A stretch of DNA of 64,000 nucleotides from an uncultured Planctomycetia bacterium (GTDB lineage: Bacteria; Planctomycetota; MHYJ01; WSZJ01), in the NCBI GenBank assembly GCA_964590435.1, contig CAZPWT010000005.1, positions 67,470 through 131,469 on the forward strand. Direction: 5' to 3'. A program made the translations under genes and the position numbers. The notes below the pieces were generated by a model. That model ran no database searches. It saw only the letters and a program-made list of their open reading frames with translations, and was not told where the DNA came from. The first letter of the stretch is position 1. Each line of letters opens with the position of its first letter. Positions 8,232 to 45,487 of this stretch are shown here, piece after piece.

Positions 8232-10346
8232 ATGCGAATTCTCAGAGATGCTTTGGCATGCTGCCTGGTGATCGTGGCCGGCTCTGCACAGGGGCAGGAA
8301 TTGCAGGCGCCTACGCTGACGAAGCTGAAGGAAGCGACGGCCTACGTGAAGTGGTCGAACGGAAGTGTGCTGAAGATGGGGTCAGCGTTCCTGGTGCGGA
8401 AGTCGGCCGACACCGGGTGGTTCCTGACCTGCGCTCACGTCGTTGCTGGCGCTCCGAAAGTCGAGGTAGTCCTGCTGAGTGGATCGGGGAAAGAGCGCGT
8501 CCTGCAGGCTGAGGTGCTGGCGGCGGACGAGACGCGCGATGTCGCCTTCCTGCGAGTCAAGGACTCGGCTCTGCCGGCCGTACTCGAATTCGCGTCCAAG
8601 ACGGAACTTCGCGAAACTGAGAACGTGTTCGTGGCCGGCTTCCCGTTCGGGGAGGCGCTCTCGACGTCGAGCCGCAATCCGGACATCTCGATTTCGAAGG
8701 TGTCCGTATCGAGCATTCGGCGGGATGAACGGGGCGAGGTTGCGACAGTCCAGCTTGACGGGAATGTGAATCCAGGAAACAGCGGCGGTCCTGTGGTTGA
8801 CTCGAAAGGAAAGATTGTCGGAATGGCCGCGGCGAAGATTGCCGGGACCGGGTTGAATTTCGCCATCCCTCCCGAATCGCTGAAAGCCTACATGCGCGGC
8901 CGCGTCGTCGCAGCAGCCGTGACCGCCGCGATCGTAGAAGCTCGGAAGGCCCGCCTGGAAATCCGGGCTTCCCTTCTCGATCCGCTGGGCTCGCTGAAAT
9001 CCGTTGGCTTCGCCTGGATCAGGCGAAGCCAGCTGAAAGGCGCAAAGCCCACCGCGGGGGCCGACGGGCGATGGAAGCAGGCCAGTCCGCTGATGAAGGA
9101 GCAGGGGCTCAAGAAGGCCGCGGGCGCTGACAGCGCCGAGGCCACGGTGGACATCGGTCGAACTGCCGACGACACCGATACGATCGAGATCCTCTTCCAG
9201 ATTCATTGGATGTTGGAGGACGGATCCGTCGAATGGACGGAGCCGGAAGTGAGGACGATCGATTTCACGGCCCCTCCTGCTCCCGCTGGGCCAAAGGCTC
9301 CCCCTCCGGACAAGCCTGTCCCACCAGCGGCCGTGGGGGCCGAACTTGTGACCGGAAACGAGGTCGTGGAAAAGGGCCGATTGCACCTGATGACGGCGGT
9401 TGGAGAGTTGATGATCAGCGCCGACGGCGCGTTTCTCTATGCCCTGGACCTGTCGGACTCCCGGTTGCTGAAGATCAGCACGGCCGACATGACTATCGCG
9501 GCCGAGTTGAAGTTTGAGGAGCCCGCCATCTGCGCCTCCCTCAGCGCAAAGGGCGACACGATATATGTGGCGTCCCAGGTGGAGCCAGCGGCGGATGAGG
9601 GTGGAGTCCGTGGACGCGGCCGTATTACCGCTGTTTCGACGGCGACCTGGAAGCCGGGCCCGCCCTTCGATTTTGAAGGCGACCCGAGAGACATCGAAGT
9701 CTCCTCGGCCGGCCTGGCCGTTGTCCAGGTCGAGGCCCAGTTGGGCAACATGCTCGTCATCGACCTCCAGAAAAGAGCTGTGGAGAAACTGGAGTACTAC
9801 AGCGGCAGGCACCATCTTCGGCTCCACCCGGACCAGTCCCGTATCTACATTGCCCAGCTCGGAAGTTCGGGAGGGAGCATGCAGTGCCTCATCTTTCAAC
9901 GCGACCCCAAACTCGGGTGGCAGCAATACGCCTCGCGCTGCAACGAGGTGAATCTGGAGGGCGCATTCGAGATATCCCCCGATGGTCGATACCTGATGAC
10001 TTCAACCGGGGGCATATTGCGCCTGGCAAAAACCGCGGAGGCCGACATGGCGTTCGTGTCAAAAACCGATCCCTGGATCAGCGCCGCCATGGCGCCGGGG
10101 TGCGGGACCTTCTACCTCGCAACTGAAGCCGGGTTCCTGAAGGAGTATGCCCTGTCCACGCTCGAGCTTCGCAAGTCCATCCGCATCGAAGGCCGCGCTA
10201 CTCACCTGGTCCTCGATCCCGCTCGCAAGATGCTCTTCGCGCACCTGTCGGTATCGCCCCCGGAAAGTCCTGCAGGCCGCAACTACCCCGGATATCGGCT
10301 GCTACTCGCGGGAGATCTTGTGGCCCTGTCATTGGAGAAAAAATGA
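8232..10346 (+). CDS. Secreted trypsin-like (S1) serine protease domain fused to a ~470-aa beta-propeller-like C-terminal region
   Basis: Signal peptide MRILRDALACCLVIVAGSAQG. The S1 signatures TCAHVV (His), DVAFLRV (Asp) and GNSGGPVV (Ser) are present. Downstream repeats DGAFLYALDLSDSRLLKIS / DGRYLMTSTGGILRL. GC3 is lower than in neighbouring genes. Confidence 0.7.
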   Translation: MRILRDALACCLVIVAGSAQGQELQAPTLTKLKEATAYVKWSNGSVLKMGSAFLVRKSADTGWFLTCAHVVAGAPKVEVVLLSGSGKERVLQAEVLAADETRDVAFLRVKDSALPAVLEFASKTELRETENVFVAGFPFGEALSTSSRNPDISISKVSVSSIRRDERGEVATVQLDGNVNPGNSGGPVVDSKGKIVGMAAAKIAGTGLNFAIPPESLKAYMRGRVVAAAVTAAIVEARKARLEIRASLLDPLGSLKSVGFAWIRRSQLKGAKPTAGADGRWKQASPLMKEQGLKKAAGADSAEATVDIGRTADDTDTIEILFQIHWMLEDGSVEWTEPEVRTIDFTAPPAPAGPKAPPPDKPVPPAAVGAELVTGNEVVEKGRLHLMTAVGELMISADGAFLYALDLSDSRLLKISTADMTIAAELKFEEPAICASLSAKGDTIYVASQVEPAADEGGVRGRGRITAVSTATWKPGPPFDFEGDPRDIEVSSAGLAVVQVEAQLGNMLVIDLQKRAVEKLEYYSGRHHLRLHPDQSRIYIAQLGSSGGSMQCLIFQRDPKLGWQQYASRCNEVNLEGAFEISPDGRYLMTSTGGILRLAKTAEADMAFVSKTDPWISAAMAPGCGTFYLATEAGFLKEYALSTLELRKSIRIEGRATHLVLDPARKMLFAHLSVSPPESPAGRNYPGYRLLLAGDLVALSLEKK

Positions 10347-12067
10347 TGATTTCTCAGAGGTTGGGAAAGCGATCCTTGCGGGTACTGCAACTCGCCGCGA
10401 TAACGGCAGCCCTTCTCCTTGGCCCGAAGCCAGGCTTGGCTCAGAACTTCGCGGACGTCTCCACCGATCAAGGTAGCTATATCGCCGGCAGGTTGCCCGA
10501 TGATGCTGCGTTTCAGTTTGACGGTAGCCTGGGACGCGTTCGCCTTGAGCCCTCGAAAATTCAAAGCATCATGTTTTCGGGCGGCAAAGCAGCGGTCACC
10601 CTTCGTGACAATTCGGTCCTGAACGGAGAATTCGGCACGGCGCCCATCAAACTCACCTGGGCCGGCGGTGAGGTTGAGATTCCCATCGAGAGGGTCAATC
10701 GAATCGATTTTCTGGCTTGTACCGACGGGAAACTCCCCAGAGGCGCTACCAATCGGGACTTCCTCGCCCTTTCAGACCTGACTATTTCCGTCAGCGTCCA
10801 GCATGGCGGAGTTGCCATCTTTGGTGGGACCATTACCGACCTGGACGCATTCGATATCGAGTGCGACCTTGGCAAAGTGCACATTCCCGTTCATCGCATC
10901 CTGACAATCGACTTCTCCTTGGATCCCCCTGAGCTGCGAACCGACGGGGGCTCGATCTTGCACGGAAAGATTTCACCTGCTTCGTTTCACCTCAAGTATG
11001 AGGGCGGAGAGTCGGTTCTCGAGGTGGAGAAGCTGGACCGGCTCTCGGTCAGCGGTGCGCCGATTGCGGGGGTCCCCGAACCCGCCCCGCCCGTGAAGCC
11101 ACCGCCGGCCGAAAAACCGCCCACTCCCCCGTCGTCCGACATCTGGCCCGAAGACTGGAAACCGGGCACACCTGTTCCCTTCAAGGGTGCGCTCGTCGGT
11201 CGTCCCGTCCTCAGCGACGACCGCAGTCGCCTCGTCTCCTTCGATTCCGCAACGCGGTCCGTGGTCGTCATAGCCACGGCAAGCATGACCGTAGCCCAGA
11301 ACATCGAAGTCCCGATAGACCTGGCGGATCTCTCCATCGCGCCGGGCATCGCCACTGCATTCGGCTGCGCCGGCGAGACCGTCATTGTCGTCGACATTGC
11401 GGGCGGCCGCGTCACCAGTCGCTTCAAGATAGAGCATCAGCTGCGGTCGATCATCGCCCTCTCCGACGATGTCGCCATCGGAGTCACGGACTCTGCCGGC
11501 CTGCTCGTGTTGTCTGCCAGCAGACAGGGGATCATCCGAAAGAGCAAACGCCTTGGGCAGGGTGCGGTTTACGTCCCTGAGCGTCGTTCTCTCTACGTGG
11601 ACGGCTGGCGCTTCACCTTTCCCGCAAATGTTGGGAAAGCCGAGAAAATCACCTTGGGCGGAGAGGTGACTGCGGCGGGTATGCCACCGGGTTGGGCCAC
11701 CAGCGATGGCAGGTTTCTCGCCAATCAGTGGGGAGGGTGCTATCGCCTCGGCGTCGTGGCCGCAGTCGCGATTCGCCCAGTCCCTCCGGTCCCTGCCGAG
11801 GTAACGGCCGCTGCCGACTTTCCGACCGCGCGCCGATGGTTTCTATTCCGCCGCAAGGATGTTGCCGAAATCGCACTGCCGAGTTTGACCATCACCAAGT
11901 TCCGCCCGATGCCCGAGGTCGCGATGGCCGCATTGGCGGACGAGAATGCGCGAGCCTTGTACGTGTTCACAGGCCGCGCCGAGGGGCTCGCCACAAACTC
12001 TGGAGGAATCGGACCTCTGAAGGGACCTGGAAACTGGATTCGCGTCGAGATCGACGTCCCCAAGTAG
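10343..12067 (+). CDS. Secreted hypothetical protein (574 aa), translationally coupled to the upstream protease gene (ATGA overlap)
   Basis: Signal peptide MMISQRLGKRSLRVLQLAAITAALLLGPKPGLAQ; RBS GGAGA; no recognisable catalytic motif; same depressed GC3 as 8232-10346. Confidence 0.55.
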   Translation: MMISQRLGKRSLRVLQLAAITAALLLGPKPGLAQNFADVSTDQGSYIAGRLPDDAAFQFDGSLGRVRLEPSKIQSIMFSGGKAAVTLRDNSVLNGEFGTAPIKLTWAGGEVEIPIERVNRIDFLACTDGKLPRGATNRDFLALSDLTISVSVQHGGVAIFGGTITDLDAFDIECDLGKVHIPVHRILTIDFSLDPPELRTDGGSILHGKISPASFHLKYEGGESVLEVEKLDRLSVSGAPIAGVPEPAPPVKPPPAEKPPTPPSSDIWPEDWKPGTPVPFKGALVGRPVLSDDRSRLVSFDSATRSVVVIATASMTVAQNIEVPIDLADLSIAPGIATAFGCAGETVIVVDIAGGRVTSRFKIEHQLRSIIALSDDVAIGVTDSAGLLVLSASRQGIIRKSKRLGQGAVYVPERRSLYVDGWRFTFPANVGKAEKITLGGEVTAAGMPPGWATSDGRFLANQWGGCYRLGVVAAVAIRPVPPVPAEVTAAADFPTARRWFLFRRKDVAEIALPSLTITKFRPMPEVAMAALADENARALYVFTGRAEGLATNSGGIGPLKGPGNWIRVEIDVPK

Positions 12068-12640: not shown

Positions 12641-12680
12641 GGAATTAATAATTCATAATTATGAATTATAAATTGTAAAT
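12641..12680. promoter_or_regulatory. AT-only 40-mer containing a perfect 22-bp palindrome in the divergent promoter region between the lipoprotein gene and top6B
   Basis: ggaattaATAATTCATAATTATGAATTATaaattgtaaattta; ATAATTCATAATTATGAATTAT (12648-12669) is its own reverse complement; the surrounding DNA is ~70 % GC. Confidence 0.6.
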
Positions 12681-12821
12681 TTAGTCCTCCCGCAGCCGCC
12701 CGCCTCTCCCCCGCCTTTCCTGTATTCCTTGCCACCTGCCCTCTCTCCGACTATCAATCCCCCTCAAGTTCCCCCCAACATTTGCCGAAAACCACCCCGG
12801 AGGACGGTGTACCCCGATCCC

Positions 12822-14681
12822 ATGAAAAAACGGCCCGGAACGAAGAAGGGGAAGCCGATGCAGCAGGACAAGATCGAGCCGGCGGCGGTGGCCGACAGCG
12901 CCCCCGCGGCCAAGGTCGTGCGGACACGCGGCGCCAAGGCGGCGGGTGAAGGCGCTTCCGAGGTGGTGGCGCCGAAGCGGCGCGGCCCGGCGCACGTGCC
13001 GCAGACCGCCGAGTCGCTCGCGAAGAAGCAGCGCGAGATCTCGGTCAGCGAGTTCTTCGCCAAGAACCGGCACCTGCTCGGGTTCGACAATCCCAAGCGC
13101 GCGCTGATGACGGCGGTCAAGGAGGCGGTCGACAACTCGCTCGACGCCTGCGAGGAGGCCGGGATCCTGCCGGACCTGCTCGTCGAGCTCAAGATGATCA
13201 ACGAAGAGCGCTTCCGCATGATCGTCGAGGACAACGGCCCGGGGATTATCAAGGCGCAGGTGCCGAAGATTTTCGGGAAGCTGCTCTACGGTTCGAAGTT
13301 CCACACGATGAAGCAGTCGCGCGGGCAGCAGGGGATCGGGATTTCGGCCGCGGGGCTGTACGCGCAGATCACGACGGGGCAGCCGGTGCGGATCGCGACG
13401 CGGACGGGGGCGAAGAAGCCCGTCTACGAGTGCGAGCTGACGCTGGACACGACGAAAAACCAGGCGGAGCTGTCGAGCGAGAAGGAATCGGCGGAGTGGC
13501 ACCGCGAGCACGGGACGCGCGTCGAGATCGAGTTCGAGGGGAAGTACGAGAAGGGCCGCCGGAGCGTGGACGAGTACATCCGCGAGACGGCGATCGCGAA
13601 CCCGCACCTGACGCTGACGTACATCACGCCGCTGGGCGAGAAGATCGTGTACAGCCGGCAGGTGGACACGAACCCGGAGCCGCCGAAGGAAATCAAGCCG
13701 CACCCGTACGGCGTCGAGCTCGGGACGCTGATGAAGATGATGCGGTCGACCGAGGAGAAGAAGATGCAGGGGTTCCTCTGCAACGACTTCTCGCGCGTCT
13801 CGAGCCAGGTCGCGCACGAGATCCTCGGCAAGGCGGGGCTCACGAGCAACACGTGGGTGCAGTCGATGGGGCCGAAGGAAGCCGAGGCGCTCTACAAGGC
13901 GATCAACGCCACGAAGATCATGGCGCCGCCCACGAACTGCATCTCGCCGATCGGCGAGGACCGGATCCTGGCGGGGCTGAAGGCGACGGTGAAGGCGAAG
14001 TGCTACGTGGCGACGACGCGCCGCCCGAGCGTCTACCGCGGCAACCCGTTCCTGCTCGAGGCCGCGATCGCGTGGGACTGCGAGGGCATGGACGCCGAGG
14101 ATCCCGTCACGCTGTTCCGCTACGCCAACCGCGTCCCGCTGCTCTACCAGCAGTCGGCGTGCGCGATCACGCAGGCCGCCATCGAGACGTCGTGGAAGAA
14201 CTACGGCCTCTCGCAGCCGCGCGGCTCGCTCCCCATCGGCCCCGCCGTCGTCTTCATCCACTTCGCGTCCGTCTGGGTCCCGTTCACGAGCGAATCCAAG
14301 GACGCGATTGCGAACTACGCCGAGGTCGAGAAGGAGATCAAGCTCGCCCTCCAGGACGTGGGCCGCAAGATCGGGACGTTCATCCGCCAGCAGGAACACG
14401 CGGAGCGCGAGGCGAAGCGCCGGCAGATCTTCGAGAAGTACGCCGCGATCCTCGCCAAGAGCCTGGCCCGCATCACGCACAAGGGGCTGATCAAGAAGGC
14501 GACCGAGAAGACGATCGAGTCCAAGGCGTCGAAGATCAACTACTGGCTGCAGAAGATCGCCAAGCGCGAGAGCGCCGCGGCGGACAAGCTGGTGAAGGGC
14601 GCGATCCAGGAAGTGCATGAAGCGGTGCACATCGTCGAGACGCCGGCGCCGCCGAAGGACAAGCCGGAGGGGCAGGACTAG
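12822..14681 (+). CDS. top6B: DNA topoisomerase VI subunit B (GHKL ATPase plus transducer) with a basic N-terminal extension
   Basis: [22 protein letters not shown] (N-terminal strap); Bergerat-fold motifs [17 protein letters not shown] and GxxGxG-like [15 protein letters not shown]; the downstream H2TH/transducer region. The start is ambiguous (12729, 12822 or 12858). Confidence 0.85.
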
Positions 14682-14695
14682 CCGGGGGCAGGTCG

Positions 14696-14851
14696 CCGCA
14701 TCCTTTTTGATCCTTTCTTATCCGTGACCCCGCCTTTCGTATCGCCGTTCATCCCGTCACTCATCCAGCTTTCGGAAACCGGATGAAAGACGGATTCAAC
14801 GGCGATAAGAACGACTTGGTCACAGATTGAAAAGGATGAAAAAGGATGCGG
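14696..14851. repeat. ~155-bp imperfect palindrome (~75-nt arms, ~80 % identity) occupying the top6B-top6A intercistronic gap
   Basis: Left arm is ccgcatcctttttgatcctttcttatccgtgacc...tatcgccgttcatcccgtcactcatccagctttcgg. Right arm, reverse-complemented, is ccgcatcctttttcatccttttcaatctgtgacc...tatcgccgttgaatccgtctttcatccggttt. There are internal direct repeats (tcctttttgatcctttc; gaaaaggatgaaaaaggatg). Confidence 0.8.
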
Positions 14852-14889
14852 CAGGCGGGGACGAAACATCCATTCCTTGAGGGGCTGCC

Positions 14890-15993
14890 ATGATCGCGAC
14901 CATCAGGAAGAACGACAAAATCCTCAAATCGCTCTTCAACCTCGGCACCGACGCGGTCGAGGAGATCAAGAAGCAGAAGAACCCTTCGGTCGACATCCCG
15001 CTCCGAAACCTCTCGAACGTCAACTTCAACCCGAAGAAGGCGATCATCGAGATGGGCCGCGCGAAGCAGTCGCGCGAGTTCTTCAACATCGGGATGGCGA
15101 AGAAGTACATGCAGACGTTCCTGGTCGCGGAGAAAGCGAAGGACCTGCTGGACGAGGGGAAGACGACCAGCATTCGTGACCTGTACTACATGGCCAAGCG
15201 CACGATCCCCGGCACGTCGGAGAACACGTTCGACGAGCAGGAAGAGTCGGACCCGATCATCGAGGACCTCGAGGTTACGGCGGATGCCCTTCGCGAGGAG
15301 CTCGGGCTGTTTGCGTCGAACAAGGGCGCGCTCGTCGGCGAGCTGACCCTGCGCGACATGGGAGACACGATCGACGCGCGCAAGATGGGGTCAGGCGGCT
15401 GGTCGATCCCGTCGATCTGCGAACCGAACATCGTCCAGTTCAAGCGTTGCGACGCGAAGTTCATCCTGCTCGTGGAAAAGGACGCGGTCTGGCGGCGCCT
15501 GAACGAGGACAAGTTCTGGAAGAAGCACAAGTGCATCCTGCTGCACGGGCAGGGCCAGCCGCCGCGCGGCGTCCGTCGCCTGCTGCACCGGATGGTGAAC
15601 GAGCTCAAGCTTCCGCTCTACACGTTCGTGGATAACGACCCGTGGGGCTACTACATCTACAGCGTCGTCAAGCAGGGCTCGATCAACCTCGCGTACGAGT
15701 CCGTCCGCATGGCCGTTCCGCAGGCGAAGTTCGTCGGCCTCTCGAGCTTCGACAAGGAGCGCTGGAAGATCGACGACACCGTCACGATCAAGCTCAACGA
15801 CGAGGACACGCGCCGCGCGAAGCAGATCATGGAGTACCCGTGGTTCCAGAAGAAGCACTGGCAGGTCGAGATCAAGAACATGCTGCGGCTGGGCTACAAG
15901 CTGGAGCTGGAAGCGCTGTCGAACCGCGGGATCTCGTTTGTGACAGATGAGTACCTGCCGAAGAAGATCAGGGACAAGGAGTTTCTCGACTGA
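14890..15993 (+). CDS. top6A: DNA topoisomerase VI subunit A (Spo11/Top6A; winged-helix catalytic Tyr plus Toprim)
   Basis: RDLYYMAKRTIP (catalytic-Tyr region); Toprim acidic motifs LLVEKDAV and FVDNDPWGYYIY; 367 aa. Confidence 0.88.
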   Translation: MIATIRKNDKILKSLFNLGTDAVEEIKKQKNPSVDIPLRNLSNVNFNPKKAIIEMGRAKQSREFFNIGMAKKYMQTFLVAEKAKDLLDEGKTTSIRDLYYMAKRTIPGTSENTFDEQEESDPIIEDLEVTADALREELGLFASNKGALVGELTLRDMGDTIDARKMGSGGWSIPSICEPNIVQFKRCDAKFILLVEKDAVWRRLNEDKFWKKHKCILLHGQGQPPRGVRRLLHRMVNELKLPLYTFVDNDPWGYYIYSVVKQGSINLAYESVRMAVPQAKFVGLSSFDKERWKIDDTVTIKLNDEDTRRAKQIMEYPWFQKKHWQVEIKNMLRLGYKLELEALSNRGISFVTDEYLPKKIRDKEFLD

Positions 15994-16047: not shown

Positions 16048-16087
16048 GAAAAAAGGGCGCGGCCAATGGCCGCGCCCTTTTTTGTTT
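16048..16087. terminator. Bidirectional intrinsic terminator shared by top6A (+) and the skp-like gene (-)
   Basis: aaaaaaGGGCGCGGCCaatGGCCGCGCCCtttttt: a perfect 10-bp stem between an A-run and a T-run. Confidence 0.9.
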
Positions 16088-16107: not shown

Positions 16108-16754
16108 CTACTTGCCGTTCCCGTCCTTCGGCGCCGCTTCCTTCTCTTTCTTGTACTTCGCCTCAAGCCTCGTCAGCACTTCCTCGGTGATGTCGTACTC
16201 GGGCGCCGAGTAGAGGATCATGCGCCGGGCGATCTTCTCGTCCGAACGGGAAGGATCCGCCGTCGCCAGCGGGCCCGTCTCCGTCTTCAGCACCAGCGTG
16301 AAGCCGTTGTCCTTCGCGTACGCCGCCACCTCCGCCTGGATCTCGTCGAAATACTTCGCGATCCCTTCGTCCAGCAGCTTCTTCACCTGGTCGTTCCACC
16401 ACTTCATCATGTAGTCGGCCTTCGCCTGCAACTGCACGATATCGAGCTGCGCGCTGATCTTGAGCTTCGGGTTGATCCCCGGCGTGTCCCGGATCGTGAT
16501 CTTCTCCTTGATGTCCTTCTCCATCTTGTCCAGCTCGGCCTCCTGCGCCTTCTTCTGGACCTCCAGTTCGTCCGTGAAGTCCTTCACCTTGGTCCACTTG
16601 TCGTAGACCTTGCTCAGGTCCACCGTGCCGAGCTTGATCGGAGGAGGAGGCGCCTTCGGGTCGCCGCCCGGCTTGGGAGCGACGTCCGTCTGCGCCAGGG
16701 CCGGGACGCACGCCATCAGCGCCGCCGCGGCGATCATCGTGAAACGCTTCATGA
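16108..16754 (-). CDS. skp: Periplasmic chaperone Skp/OmpH family
   Basis: Signal peptide MKRFTMIAAAALMACVPALA; Lys/Glu-rich coiled-coil body (EVQKKAQEAELDKMEKDIKEK...) typical of OmpH; RBS AGGAGAC before the ATG at 16754. Confidence 0.7.
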
Positions 16755-16854
16755 GGTCTCCTGTCAGGAAAGGTGCGGTGTGTGGTTTCGGCGAATGGCG
16801 CGGAAGGATAAGGCCCCGGACGGGAAAGGCCAAGAACCCAAATTTCGCGGGGGA

Positions 16855-17057: not shown

Positions 17058-20000
17058 ATGGTGCTCAGCCTGCGCTCCATCCAGTCGTGGACTTCCCCCG
17101 CTACCGTCGCCCTCGGCGCGCGGGATCTCAAGGACGGCCGCGTCACCGGCGTGCGGAAAGCCGCAGAGACCCTCTGGAGCGGGCAGGTCAAGGGCGCCAA
17201 GGACCGCCCCTTCTCCGTCGAAATCGACCTCGGCCCCCGCGGCGAACATTTCTGCGAAGGCGCCTGCGAAGGCATCTGCCGCCACATCGTCGCCCTCGCG
17301 CTCGCCGTGGCGGAGAAGTCGGGGGACGCGGGAAGCGCCACGACGCACTGGGAGGACCGGCTCGGGGCGCTGGCGACGGCGTGCGACCTGGAAGCGCCGG
17401 CGGGGGTTTCGCTGCGCGTGGCGCTGCGGGTCGAGGAAGGGCGCCTGGCGGTGCAGGCGGCGCGCGGCGGCGAGCGGTTCGACGCGCGGACGGCGGACGA
17501 CGCCGGCCTGAACACCGACGAACGCCGCTTCACGGAGATCCTGGGGCTGGCGCTCGAGGACGCGACGCGCGTCAAGCCCGACGCGGTGGACGCCGTGCTG
17601 CGCGCGGCCCGCGACCTGGCCGAGGCGTGCCCGGGGGCGTTCGCCGAGGCGTCGATCCAGGAGCGGTTCCTGGGGTGGAAATTCCGCCTGTCCAAGCGCG
17701 AAGGCGGCGGGCTCCGCCTCGCGGGGTCGCTTCATGAGGGCGACGTGCCGGTGAGCGGCTGGTCGATCATCGGCGAGCGGCGGGCGTGGGCGACGGACGG
17801 ACGGCAGTGGCGGCCCGTGCAGGGGCTGCGCGACGCGGCGGCGGCGGTGTCGCTGCTGAAGGCGCCGGTGGACATCCCGCTGGCCGACTCGGACCGGTTC
17901 GTGAAGCAGCACTTCGCGAAGCTGGCGGACCCGGGGGCGCTGATCGTGGAGGACGGGGCGCTTTCGAAGCGTCTGGTGACGGTGAAGCCGCGGGCGGTGA
18001 TCGCGCTGTCGGAGGAGGTGGGCGCGCTGGTTGCGCGGCTGTCGCTGGCGTACGGGGACGGACCTGCGCAGGTGACGGAAGTGGAGAAGGCGGGGATGGT
18101 TGAGGGGATCGACCCGACGGGCGCGTTCTGGTCGCGGCGCGCGCCGGCGGCGGAGCGCGAATTCCGCGAGAAGCTTGCGGCGGCGGCGGGGTGCACGGGC
18201 GAGCCGTGGTCGGTGCGGTTGTGGGGCGAAAACGCGCTGAAATTCCTGTCGGAAGGGCTTCCGGGGCTTGGGTGGCCGATCGTCGGGCGCGACTCACTGC
18301 GCGGGTACAAGCTGCGCGGCGGGCGTCCGAAGACGTCGGTGCGCGTCTCGGTGTCGGGCTCATGGCTCGACATGGAGGCGACGGCGGCGCTGGATGGGCT
18401 CGGCATCCCTCTCGACGAGCTGTTCGCGGCGCACGACAACGGGCTGCGCTTCCTGAAGCTGCCCGACGGGTCGTGGTCGCCGATGCCGGAGGGGGATCTC
18501 CGGAAGCTGCGCGCGCTGTGGGAAGACGCGAAGCGCGCGGGGACGGCGGGGGGCAAGGGGAAGATCCGCCTTCCCGCGAACCAGATCGGCCTCGCGGGGG
18601 ACATTTTCGCGAGCGTGGACGCGCCGGAGCGGATGCCGGAGCCGCCGCAGCCGAAGGCCTTCCAAGCGCCGGCCGGGCTGCAGGCGACGCTGCGGCCGTA
18701 CCAGCAGGATGGGGTCGCATGGCTCGAGTCGATCCGCGACGGCGGGTTCCACGGCATCCTGGCGGACGACATGGGACTCGGGAAGACGCTCCAGACGCTG
18801 ACGCTGCTGCTGGGCGACCGGCAGAAGGGCGGCAAGGGACCGAACCTGATCGTGGCGCCGACGTCGGTAGTGGGGAACTGGGCGAAGGAGGCGGCAAAGT
18901 TCACGCCGCAGTTCAAGGTGCTGCGGTTCGAGGCGGGGTCGCGCGAGAAGCTGATCGCGAAAATCCCGGAGCACGACCTGGTGCTGACGACGTACGGCGT
19001 GCTGCGCCGCGACGCGGAGATGCTGTCGGGGATCCCGTTCCGCTGGGCGATCCTGGACGAGGCGCAGCAAATAAAAACATCGGACAGCCAGACGTCCCGC
19101 GCCGCCCGCCTCCTCCGCGCCGACCACCGCCTCTGCCTGTCCGGCACCCCCATCGAGAACAACCTCTACGAGCTCTGGAGCCAGTTCCGCTTCCTCATGC
19201 CGGAACTCCTCGGGTCGGAAGAGGCCTTCCGCGAGCGGTACGCCCTCCCGATCCACAAGTCCGGCGACCACGAAGCGATGGCGTCGCTCCGCCGCCGCGT
19301 GCGGCCGTTTATCATCCGGCGGCTGAAGGAAGACGTCGCGAAGGACCTCCCGCTCAAGACCGAGTCGCTCCTGCACTGCGAGCTCGCCCCGGCGCACCGC
19401 GAGTTCTACGAGCGCCTGCTGCTCCTCACCCGCGAGAAGGTCATGAAGGCGATCGATCGCGACGGGCTCGACGGCGCGCGCTTCGCCGTCCTCGAGGCCC
19501 TTCTCCGCCTCCGCCAGGCCGCGCTCCACACGGCGATGGTGAAGCTCCCCGGCCAGAAGCTCTCTCTCTCGGCCAAGCTCGACGAGATGGACGAACTTGC
19601 GCGCGACCTCGTCGCCAACGGCCACCGCGCGCTGGTCTTCTCGCAGTTCACCGAGTTCCTCTCGCTCGTCCGCGAGCGCCTCGACACGGCCGGGCTCAAG
19701 TACTGCTACCTCGACGGCGCGACCCGCAAGCGCGACGAGGAAGTCGCGAAGTTCCAGGAGGGCGACGCGCCGTTCTTCCTCATCTCGCTCAAGGCCGGTG
19801 GCGCCGGGCTCAACCTCACCGGCGCCGACTACGTCTTCCACCTCGACCCGTGGTGGAATCCCGCCGCCGAGGAGCAGGCGACCGACCGCGCGCACCGCAT
19901 CGGGCAGAAGCGCCCCGTGATGGTCTACAAGTTCGTGTCGAAGGACACGATCGAGGAGAAGGTGATCGCGCTGCAGGACAAGAAGCGCGCGCTGGCGGAG

Positions 20001-20072
20001 GGGGTGCTCGGGAGCGACGAGGCGTTCGCGAAGAGCCTGACGGTGGGCGACATCAAGGAGCTGTTCGATTAG
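17058..20072 (+). CDS. SWIM zinc-finger plus SNF2-family helicase (Snf2 N-terminal ATPase and helicase C domains)
   Basis: SWIM CxC...CxH at FCEGACEGICRHIVALAL; SNF2 motifs LRPYQQDGVAWL, ADDMGLGKTLQT, DEAQQIKT; helicase-C block LVFSQFTEFL...LISLKAGGAGLNLTGADYVFHLDPWWNPAAEEQATDRAHRIGQKRPV. Confidence 0.85.
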   Translation: MVLSLRSIQSWTSPATVALGARDLKDGRVTGVRKAAETLWSGQVKGAKDRPFSVEIDLGPRGEHFCEGACEGICRHIVALALAVAEKSGDAGSATTHWEDRLGALATACDLEAPAGVSLRVALRVEEGRLAVQAARGGERFDARTADDAGLNTDERRFTEILGLALEDATRVKPDAVDAVLRAARDLAEACPGAFAEASIQERFLGWKFRLSKREGGGLRLAGSLHEGDVPVSGWSIIGERRAWATDGRQWRPVQGLRDAAAAVSLLKAPVDIPLADSDRFVKQHFAKLADPGALIVEDGALSKRLVTVKPRAVIALSEEVGALVARLSLAYGDGPAQVTEVEKAGMVEGIDPTGAFWSRRAPAAEREFREKLAAAAGCTGEPWSVRLWGENALKFLSEGLPGLGWPIVGRDSLRGYKLRGGRPKTSVRVSVSGSWLDMEATAALDGLGIPLDELFAAHDNGLRFLKLPDGSWSPMPEGDLRKLRALWEDAKRAGTAGGKGKIRLPANQIGLAGDIFASVDAPERMPEPPQPKAFQAPAGLQATLRPYQQDGVAWLESIRDGGFHGILADDMGLGKTLQTLTLLLGDRQKGGKGPNLIVAPTSVVGNWAKEAAKFTPQFKVLRFEAGSREKLIAKIPEHDLVLTTYGVLRRDAEMLSGIPFRWAILDEAQQIKTSDSQTSRAARLLRADHRLCLSGTPIENNLYELWSQFRFLMPELLGSEEAFRERYALPIHKSGDHEAMASLRRRVRPFIIRRLKEDVAKDLPLKTESLLHCELAPAHREFYERLLLLTREKVMKAIDRDGLDGARFAVLEALLRLRQAALHTAMVKLPGQKLSLSAKLDEMDELARDLVANGHRALVFSQFTEFLSLVRERLDTAGLKYCYLDGATRKRDEEVAKFQEGDAPFFLISLKAGGAGLNLTGADYVFHLDPWWNPAAEEQATDRAHRIGQKRPVMVYKFVSKDTIEEKVIALQDKKRALAEGVLGSDEAFAKSLTVGDIKELFD

Positions 20073-42845: not shown

Positions 42846-43532
42846 ATGCTTCACCGGATCCTGGCCGGGTTCCTGGCCGCGGCGTTCCTGACCAGCCTGG
42901 TCAGCGCCGAGGGGGAAGGGAAAGACGAGGGCCCGGGCGGCAAGCCGCCGAAGGGCAAGGACGGCGGCCCGGGGCCGAAAGGTCCGCCGCCCCCGGGGTG
43001 CCACTGCGCCTGCGGCTGCCCGGAGGACAAGGGCCCCAAAGGGCCGCCCCCTCCGCCGAAGGACAAGGACGGGAAGCCTCTTCCCCCTCCGGACGGCACG
43101 GAGGACCTGAAGGGCGACGGCGGGGCGCCGCCGCCTCCTCCCCCGCCGAAGGACGATCCGGGCGCACCGCCGCCGAAGGACGGCAAGCGGCCGCCGATGC
43201 CGCCCCCGCCGCCGTGCGGGTGCAAGTGCTGCAAACCGCCGCTTCCGCCGAAGGACGGTGAGAAGCCGCCGCCTCCGCCGAAGGATGGCGACAAGCCCCC
43301 GATGCCTCCCAAGGACGGCGAAAAGCCGCCCCCGCCGCCCAAGGACGGGGACAAGCCGCCGGTGCCGCCCAAGGACGGAGAGAAGCCGCCTCCGCCGCCG
43401 AAGGGCCACGGATGCCCCTGTCATCATCGCCCGCCGCCCCCGCCGCCCAAGGATGGCGAAAAGCCGCCGATGCCCCCGAAGGACGGCGAGAAACCGCCGA
43501 TGCCGCCGCCCGACGAGGGCGAGGACAAGTAA
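42846..43532 (+). CDS. Secreted proline-rich tandem-repeat protein with Cys/His clusters
   Basis: Signal peptide MLHRILAGFLAAAFLTSLVSAEG; about eight 10-aa repeats PPKDGEKPPP / PPKDGDKPPM encoded by a ~30-bp tandem DNA repeat with synonymous drift; GCHCACGCP, CGCKCCKPP and GHGCPCHH clusters. Confidence 0.65.
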   Translation: MLHRILAGFLAAAFLTSLVSAEGEGKDEGPGGKPPKGKDGGPGPKGPPPPGCHCACGCPEDKGPKGPPPPPKDKDGKPLPPPDGTEDLKGDGGAPPPPPPPKDDPGAPPPKDGKRPPMPPPPPCGCKCCKPPLPPKDGEKPPPPPKDGDKPPMPPKDGEKPPPPPKDGDKPPVPPKDGEKPPPPPKGHGCPCHHRPPPPPPKDGEKPPMPPKDGEKPPMPPPDEGEDK

Positions 43533-43549
43533 GCCGTCGTCGATCCGAA

Positions 43550-43579
43550 CAGGCCCGCCCCGGCGGGCCTGTTTTTTTG
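43550..43579 (+). terminator. Intrinsic terminator after the proline-rich repeat gene
   Basis: CAGGCCCGCCccggcGGGCCTGttttttt. Confidence 0.85.
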
Positions 43580-43630
43580 CGTTCCAGTCCTTCGAACCGG
43601 GGCGGCCCGGGGATCGATAGAATCCGACCC

Positions 43631-45400
43631 GTGACCGATCCCCACCAGCCGCCCTTCGTCATCCCCGCAGGCACGCAGGTCGTTTCCCGGATCGAGATCC
43701 AGGACGCTTCCGGGGCCAGGCTCCATCCCCACGGCGCGGTCGGGATCGTCGTGAAGGCCCCCGCCGACGCGACGCACTCGTACCGCGTGCGGTTCCCGGA
43801 CGGGTTCGAGGCTTCGCTGAAGCGCGTCGAGCTCGACGTGCGGAAGACGGCGCCGCGGGAAGCGCTCGCGGAGGCGGGGCAGGAACTCGCCTCGGACGAT
43901 CTCTTCGATCGCGTCATCTACCGCGTCGTGATCGGTTCGCGGGCGTACGGGCTCGATAACGAGCAATCGGACACGGACCGCCGCGGCGTCTACCTGCCGC
44001 CGGCGGACCGCCACTGGTCACTCTTCGGCATCCCCGAGCAGCTCGAGAACGACGCGACGCAGGAGTGCTACTGGGAGCTGCAGAAGTTCCTGACGATGGC
44101 GCTCAAGGCGAACCCGAACGTCCTCGAGTGCCTCTGGTCGCCGATCGTCGAGACCGCGACGCCGCTCGCTCAGGAGATGCTCGCGATGCGCGGGGCGTTC
44201 CTGTCGAAGATGATCTACCAGACGTACAACGGGTACGTGATGTCGCAGTTCCGGAAGCTGGAGCAGGACCTGCGGAACCAGGGCGCGTTCCGCTGGAAGC
44301 ACGCGATGCACCTCGTGCGGCTCTTGCTGTCCGGCGTGACGGCGCTTCGCGAAGGCCGCGTCCCGGTGCGCGTCGAGGAGCACCGCGACCGCCTGCTGGC
44401 GATCCGTCGCGGCGAGACGCCGTGGGCCGAGGTCGACGCCTGGCGCATCCAGCTCCACAAGGAATTCGACGCCGCGCTCGCGTCCACGGCGCTTCCCGAA
44501 CGCCCCGACTACGAGAAGGCGAACGCCTTCCTGCTGCGGGCGCGTCGAAGCGCCGCCGGCGAGGCGTCGCGGGTCCAGGTCGCGATGACGCCGCCGGCGC
44601 CGCCGCACGGGCTCGTCATCGACCCGCGCGCCGCCGCCGCGGTCCGCGAACACCCGCACCGGCTGATCTTCGCCTCCGTGAGCGGCTCGCACCTCTACGG
44701 CTTCCCTTCGCCGGACTCCGACTGGGACATGCGGGGCGCGCACGTCCTCCCCGTCGAGGAGACCTCCCGGCTCGACGTGCACGGCGAGACGATCGAATCG
44801 ACCCGGGTGCGCGACGGCCTCGAAGTCGACCTCGTGACGCACGACGTCCGCAAGTTCTTCGGCCTCATCCTCAAGCGCAACGGCTACGTCCTGGAGCAGA
44901 TCTTCTCGCCAATCGTCGTCGCGACCTCCCCGGCGCACGAGGAACTCAAGGCGATCGCCGCGCGCTGCGTCACGAAACACCACTCCCATCACTACCTCGG
45001 GTTCGCGGCGACCGAACGCGGCCTGTTCCGCAAGGAAGACCCGCCGCGCGTGAAGCCGCTGCTCTACATCTATCGCGTCCTGCTGACCGGAATCCACCTG
45101 ATGCACACCGGGGAGGTCCTCTCCCACCTCCCGACGCTGGCCGTGGAAGCGAAGCTCGGCTACCTCGAGGAGCTGATGCGCTTCAAGATCGAAGCCAAAG
45201 AACGCGCCGTCCTCGCGAAAGCCGACCTGGCATTCCACGAGCGCGAGCACGACCGGCTCACCCGGGAACTTGAGGAAGCCTCGGCGGCGAGTTCGCTTCC
45301 GGAAGGGCCCCAGGCACGCGCCGAGCTGGACGACCTGCTGGTCCGGATCCGGTTGGGGAAGGTCCATTCTGGATCTATTCCAGGTCCAGATTGCCGCTGA
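43631..45400 (+). CDS. Pol-beta-superfamily nucleotidyltransferase with two tandem NTase modules (RlaP/PF10127-like)
   Basis: Module 1 is VIGSRAYGLDNEQSDTDRRGVYLPP...NVLECLWSP. Module 2 is ASVSGSHLYGFPSPDSDWDMRGAHVLP...YVLEQIFSP (GS...D-x-D signatures). The start is probably GTG 43631, after the upstream terminator; the listed ATG 43412 would overlap the upstream gene. Confidence 0.55.
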   Translation: MTDPHQPPFVIPAGTQVVSRIEIQDASGARLHPHGAVGIVVKAPADATHSYRVRFPDGFEASLKRVELDVRKTAPREALAEAGQELASDDLFDRVIYRVVIGSRAYGLDNEQSDTDRRGVYLPPADRHWSLFGIPEQLENDATQECYWELQKFLTMALKANPNVLECLWSPIVETATPLAQEMLAMRGAFLSKMIYQTYNGYVMSQFRKLEQDLRNQGAFRWKHAMHLVRLLLSGVTALREGRVPVRVEEHRDRLLAIRRGETPWAEVDAWRIQLHKEFDAALASTALPERPDYEKANAFLLRARRSAAGEASRVQVAMTPPAPPHGLVIDPRAAAAVREHPHRLIFASVSGSHLYGFPSPDSDWDMRGAHVLPVEETSRLDVHGETIESTRVRDGLEVDLVTHDVRKFFGLILKRNGYVLEQIFSPIVVATSPAHEELKAIAARCVTKHHSHHYLGFAATERGLFRKEDPPRVKPLLYIYRVLLTGIHLMHTGEVLSHLPTLAVEAKLGYLEELMRFKIEAKERAVLAKADLAFHEREHDRLTRELEEASAASSLPEGPQARAELDDLLVRIRLGKVHSGSIPGPDCR

Positions 45401-45487
45401 ACTGGATTCAAAACGAGTCCAGTTGCTTCCCCGTACCCGTCCTCTCCCCCATAACCCACTCCGGAGCCTCGTGCTAGGATTGCCCCC

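Follow-up and report, generated by a model that had tools for sequence, protein, structure and literature searches.

The 64-kb window (the whole stretch of planctomycete DNA that was analysed) contains two adjacent genes on the same strand, top6B and then top6A, which encode separate polypeptides (Table 1). Comparison with the NCBIfam equivalog models showed that Top6B scored 687.6 bits against NF003218 (cut-off 274) and Top6A scored 577.8 bits against NF003333 (cut-off 465), while Top6B also exceeded the cut-off of the equivalog TIGR01052 (534.3 versus 380.7 bits). The Pfam domains Topo-VIb_trans, HATPase_c, TP6A_N and TOP6A-Spo11_Toprim were found over both subunits. A preliminary description of this DNA had named the pair a bona fide Top6B and Top6A in the order B then A; the equivalog cut-offs passed and the location of every motif that it quoted bear this out, and the same order was found in nearly all of 80 related loci. 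Judged from its sequence, top6B-top6A is an intact, full-length bona fide topoisomerase VI operon, native to the planctomycete chromosome.

Table 1. Features of the top6 locus (positions in the window) and domain layout of the two subunits
Feature	Position	Strand	Remarks
Promoter-like element	12729..12757	+	TTGCCA 12729-12734, 17-nt spacer, TATCAA 12752-12757; read from sequence
Conserved 5′ leader of top6B	12758..12821	+	With GGAGGA; 4-way alignment
top6B	12822-14681	+	619 aa from ATG 12822; mechanical ORF starts at TTG 12729
Imperfect inverted repeat, 158 nt	14695..14852	.	77-nt arms, 78% complementary, 4-nt loop; within 208-bp spacer
top6A	14890-15993	+	367 aa
Perfect 17-bp GC-rich stem	16049..16083	.	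A6/T6 runs on either side; lies between the convergent genes top6A and ompH
OmpH/Skp-family periplasmic chaperone (ompH)	16108-16833	-	Pfam PF03938, 57 bits
Top6B layout			N-tail (1-~67) basic and disordered; then strap helix, GHKL ATPase, H2TH, transducer (Lys493) and long C-terminal stalk helices; Ig-like C-terminal domain (CTD) absent
Top6A layout			Arg96 and catalytic Tyr100 in the winged-helix/5Y-CAP; Glu196, Asp248 and Asp250 in the Toprim

The functional elements of Top6B were located individually. The protein carries SVSEFF (74-79), EAVDNSLDA (101-109), VEDNGPGI (135-142) and a further 10-letter motif, not written out here, at 166-175; the GHKL/Bergerat residues E101, N105, D137-N-G-P-G141 and G168-QQ-G171-I-G173 were invariant in an alignment of 41 sequences, and the ATPase was also recognized as HATPase_c by Pfam. 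The transducer matched Topo-VIb_trans with 179 bits, the match spanning positions 1-158 of the 159-position profile, and its S490-E-S-K493 pairs in the alignment with SESK of Methanosarcina mazei and SAGK of Saccharolobus shibatae, K493 being invariant in the 41 sequences. An H2TH domain lies between GHKL and transducer in topoisomerase VI and is absent from the Spo11-partner TopoVIB-like proteins; here it was found within a continuous alignment to M. mazei residues 5-496, with no large gap, and as helices 300-363 of the structural model. The KGRR loop (244-247) and WKNY (458-461, with W458 and Y461 invariant in the 41 sequences) correspond to the DNA-sensing KGRR and WKxY elements, which are needed for M. 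mazei topoisomerase VI activity (PMC5922973). The AF2 model of Top6B (pTM 0.71) was confident over the core, with pLDDT <50 at residues 1-48, and its C-terminus consists of helices 500-553 and 561-591 with no Ig-like CTD. A Foldseek search of the PDB with this model returned M. mazei Top6B as the best match (E 1.6e-49, 47% identity), its superposition on 9o0g_B and 2q2e_B covered 505-511 alignment columns, and the sequence aligned end to end with 2q2e_B (3e-154).

Top6A carries IRDLYY (95-100), VEKD (E196) and DNDPWG (248-253), and its sequence aligned end to end with 2zbk_A (3e-82). The 5Y-CAP motif I-R96-D-L-Y-Y100 pairs with IRDLYY of S. shibatae and LRELYY of M. mazei, and R96 and Y100 were invariant in 37 sequences; the second tyrosine, Tyr100, is the one that we take to be the nucleophile, after Y103 of Methanocaldococcus jannaschii and Y135 of Spo11. 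The Pfam match to TOP6A-Spo11_Toprim (206 bits) covered profile positions 1-170 of 170, with E196, D248 and D250 invariant in the same 37 sequences. Loss of the catalytic tyrosine or of the Toprim acidic residues had been put forward beforehand as evidence against the assignment; Tyr100, Glu196, Asp248 and Asp250 are all retained. Over both subunits, the catalytic and sensing residues were mostly invariant in these alignments of 37-41 sequences.

Upstream of top6B, the TTGCCA and TATCAA hexamers fall in blocks conserved across the window and three relatives (L126, L128 and L004). A promoter consensus scan of this region with a threshold of 9/12 gave no match; the element scores 8/12 and was for this reason not reported. 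Both genes are probably transcribed from this conserved promoter-like element. The top6B leader was nearly invariant in the 4-way alignment, its conservation exceeding that of the coding N-tail that follows. A 32-bp all-AT palindrome upstream of top6B was considered as a conserved operator and rejected, as it is missing in 3/3 relatives. Downstream of top6A, weak Rfam sRNA-terminator-like matches were obtained at 16049-16083, and this stem is likely to be a bidirectional intrinsic terminator closing the operon.

The inverted repeat between the two genes was predicted to fold with a dG of −97.9 kcal/mol (z −6.2). In the relatives the spacing between top6B and top6A is 40 bp (L126) or 30 bp (L127/L128), or the genes overlap by ATGA (L004); on this comparison, the ~160-nt palindromic hairpin is a species-specific insertion. 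The 208-bp structured spacer removes the tight coupling of the relatives and could change the A:B stoichiometry. A second copy of the hairpin was found neither in the window nor, apart from contigs of the same species, in 125 fetched loci, and a metagenome scan with a 19-mer spanning both arms gave 42 single-arm, chance-like matches and no second arm. The hairpin was accordingly rejected as a member of a MITE/REP family. Rfam yielded no family for it, with sub-threshold miRNA-like hairpin matches only.

Top6B has 73 residues ahead of the strap motif, a lysine/arginine/alanine/proline-rich and disordered stretch with a net charge of +10 and a GC3 of 0.90. The GC3 over 12729-12821, just upstream of the ATG, was 0.58, with no coding-frame signal, and the start at ATG 12822 (MKKRP) is kept in frame in 4/4 clade members. 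The N-terminal extension that had been described as atypical of archaeal enzymes is real and coding, and such a tail is lacking or short in those archaeal enzymes whose structures have been solved. In the nearest, mostly bacterial, Top6B homologues a median of 52 aa precedes the strap motif, and the net charge is at least +3 in 93 of 120 tails; by sequence comparison, a basic N-tail is the norm among these homologues and is not peculiar to the present locus. The basic disordered tail is an accessory shared across the clade and plausibly tethers DNA in a non-specific manner. A tentative and rather doubtful proposal is that it represents an innovation of bacterial-lineage topoisomerase VI, serving as a nucleoid tether or tuning crossing preference, and that, separately, the intercistronic hairpin could set the B:A expression ratio. 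If so, the tail would replace the role played by the Ig-like CTD in gyrase-containing archaea or by RHL1/BIN4 in plants.

The GC3 of both top6B and top6A was 0.93 and that of the neighbouring genes 0.88-0.95, and the lipoprotein-top6B-top6A-ompH-SNF2 synteny is common to three related MAGs (82-92% protein identity), in agreement with the earlier view that the GC3 is native-like and the operon no recent insertion. The window also contains housekeeping genes encoding FtsH, FolP, a phosphoglucomutase-family protein, DapA and a type II secretion system (T2SS). Three other statements about the flanks did not stand. The supposed histone-like protein is the OmpH/Skp chaperone; in the supposed SWIM-SNF2 helicase, Pfam found no SWIM domain in residues 1-147 even at E<=10; and the hint at chromatin-type DNA transactions is unsupported, OmpH and SNF2 adjoining top6BA only in the window's small clade (L004, L126, L128). 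By eye, a CxxxCxxxCxH string can be made out at the N-terminus of the SNF2 helicase. This helicase was also considered as a defence gene and rejected: its strong PADLOC matches to DpdE and ZorD span the generic helicase core only, its NCBIfam scores were far below the cut-offs, and no partner genes were seen.

When every ORF of 90 aa or more lying up to 5 kb from the operon was clustered at about 80 loci, there was no neighbour of top6BA conserved across phyla and no conserved accessory gene, only lineage-specific synteny blocks, none of which includes the window. Pirellulales-type loci had a pair of small secreted proteins, and the Multivorans/Thermoanaerobaculia Acidobacteriota had blocks of their own. 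Close to the operon, the block at 8232-12067 has a lower GC3 (0.75 for its first gene); the 92% identical relative L126 does not have it.

Neighbour-joining trees of both subunits placed the window clade (bootstrap 100) inside a cluster of bacterial and DPANN sequences, with bootstrap 98 for this cluster in Top6A and 96 for the bacteria in Top6B. The clade comprises four MAGs of 82-92% mutual identity and forms a separate deep branch, whose identity to the MAGs of Pirellulales, Thermoguttaceae and Phycisphaerae in the set is only 53-60%. The published bacterial topoisomerase VI cluster lies close to DPANN and Euryarchaeota (PMC11302465), and the placement beside DPANN matches that description, the sequences of the published species having been left out of the present trees. 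After trimming, the identities to M. mazei and S. shibatae were 48% and 34% for Top6B and 30% and 42% for Top6A, a contrast most simply read as a long M. mazei Top6A branch. A chimeric operon with a Methanosarcina-like Top6B and a Sulfolobus-like Top6A was rejected, both subunits falling in the same bacterial and DPANN cluster.

Topoisomerase VI had been regarded as only sporadic in bacteria. That view is too narrow: the enzyme has been reported in 17 bacterial families, several of them planctomycete (Allen & Maxwell, 2024; PMC11302465), and confirmed close relatives of Top6A were present in at least 552 GTDB species genomes, the best 80 of which were mostly from Planctomycetota, Myxococcota and Acidobacteriota. 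An identical protein is already present in NCBI, and the bacterial topoisomerase VI operon is already documented in Planctomycetota and other bacteria. The present locus confirms the known pattern of an archaeal-type topoisomerase VI as a resident chromosomal enzyme in planctomycetes and several other phyla; neither the N-tail nor the hairpin between the cistrons is a discovery, each being a small lead. Bacterial topoisomerase VI looks far wider than sporadic. No bacterial enzyme of this family is known to have been characterized biochemically or genetically. NCBI model names call Top6A "DNA topoisomerase IV subunit A", a label that can conceal bacterial top6A from surveys.

Several other explanations of the locus were weighed. 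It is extremely improbable that Top6A is a degenerate or repurposed Top6A-like nuclease, such as JetD/MksG of Wadjet/MksBEFG or a Spo11-like maker of double-strand breaks. The PADLOC match to JetD that speaks for it is weak (29.6 bits, E 8.7e-8) and arises via the shared Toprim fold, against 578 bits to the Top6A equivalog; moreover, top6A adjoins the gene for a complete Top6B, whose ATPase, H2TH, transducer Lys, KGRR and WKxY are intact and which has no PADLOC match, and no JetABC/MksBEF genes or SMC-like partners lie next to top6A. Even more remote, to the point of being negligible, is a type IIB enzyme of a mobile element (Topo VIII or Mini-A) on an integrated plasmid. Integrated elements of a few Planctomycetes do carry Topo VIII (PMC7671362), and the adjoining block of lower GC3 that L126 lacks would fit such an origin; however, A and B are two separate genes, each a topoisomerase VI equivalog, with Top6B 47-48% identical to that of M. 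mazei, their GC3 is native, their synteny is conserved in four related genomes in a chromosomal housekeeping context, and no integrase or transposase domains were found among the ORFs scanned.

That the genes came recently from an archaeon, or that archaeal DNA contaminates the MAG or was mis-binned into it, is highly improbable. The family does ultimately go back to archaea, DPANN sequences are 63-67% identical to Top6A, and the overall GC of the top6 genes (0.62-0.65) is below the window mean, but this low GC traces to codon positions 1 and 2, and hence to amino-acid composition, whereas GC3 is 0.93. In addition, one contig joins the top6 genes to bacterial OmpH, T2SS and FtsH, the arrangement recurs in independent assemblies and in the three related MAGs, and the bacterial Top6B sequences form a clade of their own. 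Very unlikely, too, is that the palindromic insertion compromises the operon by acting as a terminator or RNase site that uncouples or silences top6A. A 158-nt hairpin of about −98 kcal/mol does stand where the two genes of the relatives overlap by 4 nt or are separated by 30-40 bp; nevertheless, the ORF of top6A is complete and retains all catalytic residues, its GC3 is 0.93, an SD-like GAGGGG of its own precedes the ATG by 7 nt, and the hairpin sequence is identical in three independent assemblies/samples (L001-L003). The stem also does not fit an intrinsic terminator because no T-run follows it.

Taken together, the locus very probably encodes a canonical type IIB DNA topoisomerase VI, chromosomal and vertically inherited within its clade, that is predicted to be an A2B2 decatenase. 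As in its M. mazei and S. shibatae homologues, the holoenzyme would be an A2B2 heterotetramer in which Top6B dimerizes in an ATP-driven manner and captures the T-segment, while Tyr100 of Top6A and the Toprim Mg2+ site (Glu196, Asp248, Asp250) would cut the G-segment with a 2-nt stagger; passage of the T-segment and resealing of the break would then give ATP-dependent decatenation and relaxation. In topoisomerase VI-bearing planctomycete families gyrase is present and ParC/ParE (topoisomerase IV) is missing, and a replacement has been proposed (Allen & Maxwell, 2024; PMC11302465). For this reason the most likely cellular role would be that of a replicative decatenase and positive-supercoil relaxase alongside gyrase, although the same authors state that the role of topoisomerase VI in bacteria needs further work (PMC11302465). 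Within the 64-kb window no gyrase or topoisomerase IV motifs were found; an EGLSAG match at 21920 was rejected as a gyrase motif, since it lies in a non-coding frame in low-complexity sequence.

Among the known systems, Topo VIII/Mini-A and JetD/MksG have the Toprim and 5Y-CAP catalytic module in common with the window Top6A but, unlike the window genes, are plasmid-borne or defence-associated. In Topo VIII, B and A are fused into a single polypeptide that resembles topoisomerase VI only remotely, and Mini-A and JetD are not known to have a B subunit. S. shibatae (formerly Sulfolobus) topoisomerase VI (PDB 2zbk) provides the best solved relative of Top6A (3e-82, 42% identity), with IRDLYY, VEKDAV and DxDP[YW]G in common, whereas its Top6B is only 34% identical and has no basic N-terminal tail. 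M. mazei topoisomerase VI (PDB 2q2e, 9o0g) shares the two-subunit architecture; its Top6B aligned over residues 62-554 of the window Top6B (3e-154) with 47-48% identity, the GHKL motifs, KGRR loop, WKxY motif and transducer Lys being the same in both, whereas its Top6A is only about 30% identical. The window Top6B differs from that of M. mazei in a basic, disordered N-tail of ~60-70 aa, which the latter does not have, and in the absence of the Ig-like CTD, the model agreeing here with the report that bacterial Top6B proteins have no such domain (Allen & Maxwell; PMC11302465). The published bacterial topoisomerases VI (Pirellula staleyi, Lacipirellula parvula, Thermogutta terrifontis, Anaeromyxobacter and others; PMC11302465) belong to the same family and include members of the same phylum, and the window species differs from them in having its own hairpin insertion.

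Both subunit genes were found in the ORF listing (see the table), adjacent and on the plus strand as the preliminary description had them, and all peptide motifs that it quoted for Top6B and Top6A were found again in the translated ORFs. A motif search placed SVSEFF, EAVDNSLDA, VEDNGPGI and one more quoted motif at residues 74-79, 101-109, 135-142 and 166-175 of Top6B, and IRDLYY and DNDPWG at residues 95-100 and 248-253 of Top6A. The NCBIfam scores of Top6B, 687.6 bits for NF003218 and 534 bits for TIGR01052, exceeded the respective cut-offs of 274 and 381, and the Top6A score for NF003333 was 577.8 bits where 465 is required. Pfam domains were HATPase_c and Topo-VIb_trans in Top6B, and TP6A_N, Topo_VI_alpha and TOP6A-Spo11_Toprim in Top6A. 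Comparison with solved chains showed near full-length alignment of Top6B with M. mazei 2q2e_B (3e-154) and of Top6A with S. shibatae 2zbk_A (3e-82). At the sequence level, the matches of both subunits to topoisomerase VI (topo VI) models are decisive. NF003333 and the related PRK04342 are described as 'DNA topoisomerase IV subunit A', so bacterial and archaeal Top6A proteins, including the cluster of the window protein (for example MBI2923096.1), are annotated as such, a misnomer that can confuse distribution surveys of topo IV versus topo VI.

Coordinates of the top6 genes and surrounding features in the window
Feature	Position	Strand	Description
Two large genes	8232-12067	+	Between DUF2914-like and lipoprotein genes
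A/T palindrome	12643-12674		32 bp, all A/T
Promoter-like element and leader	12729-12821		TTGCCA-17-TATCAA, 64-nt leader
top6B	12729/12822-14681	+	ORF listing
Intercistronic palindrome	14695-14852		158 nt, imperfect
top6A	14890-15993	+	ORF listing
Stem	16049-16083		Perfect, 17 bp, between A6/T6 runs
ompH	16108-16833	-	OmpH/Skp-family periplasmic chaperone with signal peptide (Pfam PF03938)
SNF2 helicase gene	17058-20072		1004 aa; Pfam SNF2 with bacterial SNF2_assoc domain
RlaP-domain region	43262-50608		712-aa protein, then long ORF
Long ORF	45455-50608		About 1,718 aa

In Top6B, the general base E101, the Mg ligand N105, the adenine-binding D137 (within DNGPG), the ATP-lid glycines G168-G173 and the transducer lysine K493 were present, as were a KGRR loop at 244-247 and a WKxY motif (WKNY) at 458-461, both of which proved essential in M. 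mazei topo VI when mutated (PMC5922973); most of these residues did not vary across 41 aligned sequences. In Top6A, R96, the catalytic Y100, E196 of the Toprim domain and D248 and D250 of the DxD pair were invariant in 37 homologues, so the loss of the Tyr or Toprim acidic residues, which the preliminary description had named as evidence against its reading, did not occur. By each sequence test applied, both subunits are predicted to be catalytically intact. The core of the Top6B AlphaFold2 model (pTM 0.71) was folded with confidence, and its top PDB matches were M. mazei Top6B chains (Foldseek E 1.6e-49, 47-48% identity).

The top6BA genes are native to the bacterial chromosome. GC3 was 0.93 in both, inside the range of flanking genes (0.88-0.95), bearing out the native-like GC3 reported earlier; their overall GC was lower (0.62-0.65), with the difference in codon positions 1 and 2. 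Housekeeping genes in the window code for FtsH, dihydropteroate synthase, an enzyme of the phosphoglucomutase family, DapA and a type II secretion cluster. An identical Top6A protein was found in NCBI on a 131.8-kb contig, and the NCBI cluster mates of the window Top6A are annotated as Planctomycetota MAG proteins. The gene order lipoprotein-top6B-top6A-ompH-SNF2 is common to three related MAGs, L004 (Planctomycetia SJ466), L126 and L128 (labelled Candidatus Brocadiae), whose Top6B proteins are 82-92% identical to that of the window.

The Top6B N-terminal extension is real and coding. GC3 was 0.90 over 12822-13040 compared with 0.58 directly upstream, and all four members of the clade share the in-frame ATG 12822 (MKKRP...). 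The tail comprises 73 residues ahead of the strap motif, is rich in A/K/P/V/R with a net charge of +10, and is predicted to be disordered over residues 1-48 (pLDDT <50 in the AlphaFold2 model). Solved archaeal Top6B proteins (M. mazei, S. shibatae) have about 10-17 residues at this position and Nanoarchaeia homologues 29, whereas the median among the 120 nearest Top6B homologues was 52, and 93 of these 120 tails had a net charge of +3 or more. The extension is atypical of archaeal enzymes, as had been claimed, but not peculiar to this gene. DNA tethering by the tail is plausible, although purely inferred. Directly upstream of the ATG lie a nearly invariant 64-nt leader and the conserved promoter-like TTGCCA-17-TATCAA element, almost unchanged in four genomes with diverged coding N-tails; this could be a putative regulatory leader, for example a supercoiling-sensitive one, seen in four near-identical sequences with no covariation among them. 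The spacer between the divergent lipoprotein and top6B genes also holds an all-A/T palindrome (AATTAATAATTCATAA/TTATGAATTATAAATT) in a genome of ~68% GC, which was missing from all three closest relatives.

The 208-bp top6B-top6A spacer holds an imperfect palindrome with 77-nt arms (78% complementary; dG -97.9 kcal/mol as RNA, z = -6.2). The junction in relatives is 40 bp (L126), 30 bp (L127/L128) or an ATGA stop/start 4-nt overlap (L004), implying a ~168-nt insertion in the window species only. The insertion was identical across three independent sequencing runs, and top6A retains an intact ORF and its own SD-like GAGGGG. No further copies were found in the window, the fetched loci or a metagenome scan, and no Rfam family matched. 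Candidate explanations are a dead palindromic insertion, an element of mRNA processing or stability, and a setter of the subunit ratio. Downstream of top6A, the perfect stem is a probable terminator for top6BA as well as for ompH, which converges on it.

The preliminary description is correct in its sequence reading and gene identification and wrong in its speculation on the flanks. The supposed histone-like protein is the OmpH/Skp chaperone, and the supposed SWIM-SNF2 protein is an SNF2 helicase in whose N-terminus Pfam detected no SWIM domain. The helicase matched the PADLOC DpdE and ZorD models (up to 498 bits) over the generic helicase core only; either identity was rejected, the scores falling far short of the equivalog cut-offs of NCBIfam, and genes for Dpd or Zorya partners are missing beside it. 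Clustering of flanking ORFs from about 80 loci showed no neighbour kept across phyla, and ompH and SNF2 lie beside top6BA only within the window's own clade, leaving the proposed chromatin-type DNA transactions unsupported. In Pirellulales-, Planctomycetaceae- and Thermoguttaceae-type loci (L026, L027, L031, L045, L053, L054, L057-L059, L061, L063, L069, L071, L072, L075 and L078), two ~140-aa Tyr/Pro/Gly-rich signal-peptide proteins are encoded divergently just upstream of top6B, which looks like lineage synteny. The two large genes before the lipoprotein gene encode a trypsin-like protease of 704 aa, whose C-terminal region is long, and a protein of 574 aa without Pfam match. Their GC is lower (0.61-0.63, with GC3 0.75 in the first), and the same interval in the 92% relative L126 holds just one small 163-aa gene, suggesting a recently acquired block beside the top6 operon. 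Elsewhere in the window, a protein with two stretches that match an RlaP domain (RNA-repair-pathway DNA polymerase beta family) precedes a very long ORF.

Neighbour-joining trees of the labelled loci and the two PDB archaeal enzymes (M. mazei, S. shibatae) placed the window and its three relatives in one clade (bootstrap 100), nested in a large Planctomycetota/Myxococcota/Acidobacteriota/Fibrobacteria cluster with a few DPANN archaea. The archaeal references fell outside that cluster in the Top6A tree (bootstrap 98), and bacteria formed a clade in the Top6B tree (bootstrap 96). Topo VIII affinity is ruled out by the separate subunit genes, the topo VI equivalog status of both and the chromosomal context; a JetD/MksG reading is likewise ruled out, the JetD match reaching 29.6 bits versus 578 bits for the Top6A model, and Top6B had no PADLOC match. 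The nearest solved relative differs by subunit: identity with M. mazei and S. shibatae is 48% and 34% for Top6B, and 30% and 42% for Top6A. This discordance is most simply explained by a fast-evolving M. mazei Top6A, although separate histories of the two subunits are another possible cause.

Forterre & Gadelle (2009) recorded topo VI in three bacteria, and 17 bacterial families are now published, including Pirellulaceae, Lacipirellulaceae, Thermoguttaceae and two Phycisphaerae families (PMC11302465). Our GTDB scan, in which each species was represented by a single genome, confirmed at least 552 relatives, the best 80 of which (58-84% identity) were overwhelmingly bacterial, so the earlier 'only sporadic in bacteria' understates the present picture. 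The B-then-A gene order, correctly noted in the window, is the rule among related loci. The published topo VI-bearing planctomycetes have gyrase and no topo IV, and Allen & Maxwell (2024) proposed a substitute decatenase role for their topo VI (PMC11302465). The window topo VI is not new, being a conventional member of a known family that had already been described in this phylum. The position of its clade near DPANN resembles the published trees, in which bacterial topo VI clusters near DPANN and Euryarchaeota (PMC11302465). The C-terminal part of the Top6B AlphaFold2 model consists of a stalk helix (500-553) and a single helix (561-591) with no Ig-like domain, in agreement with bacterial Top6B as described by Allen & Maxwell (PMC11302465).
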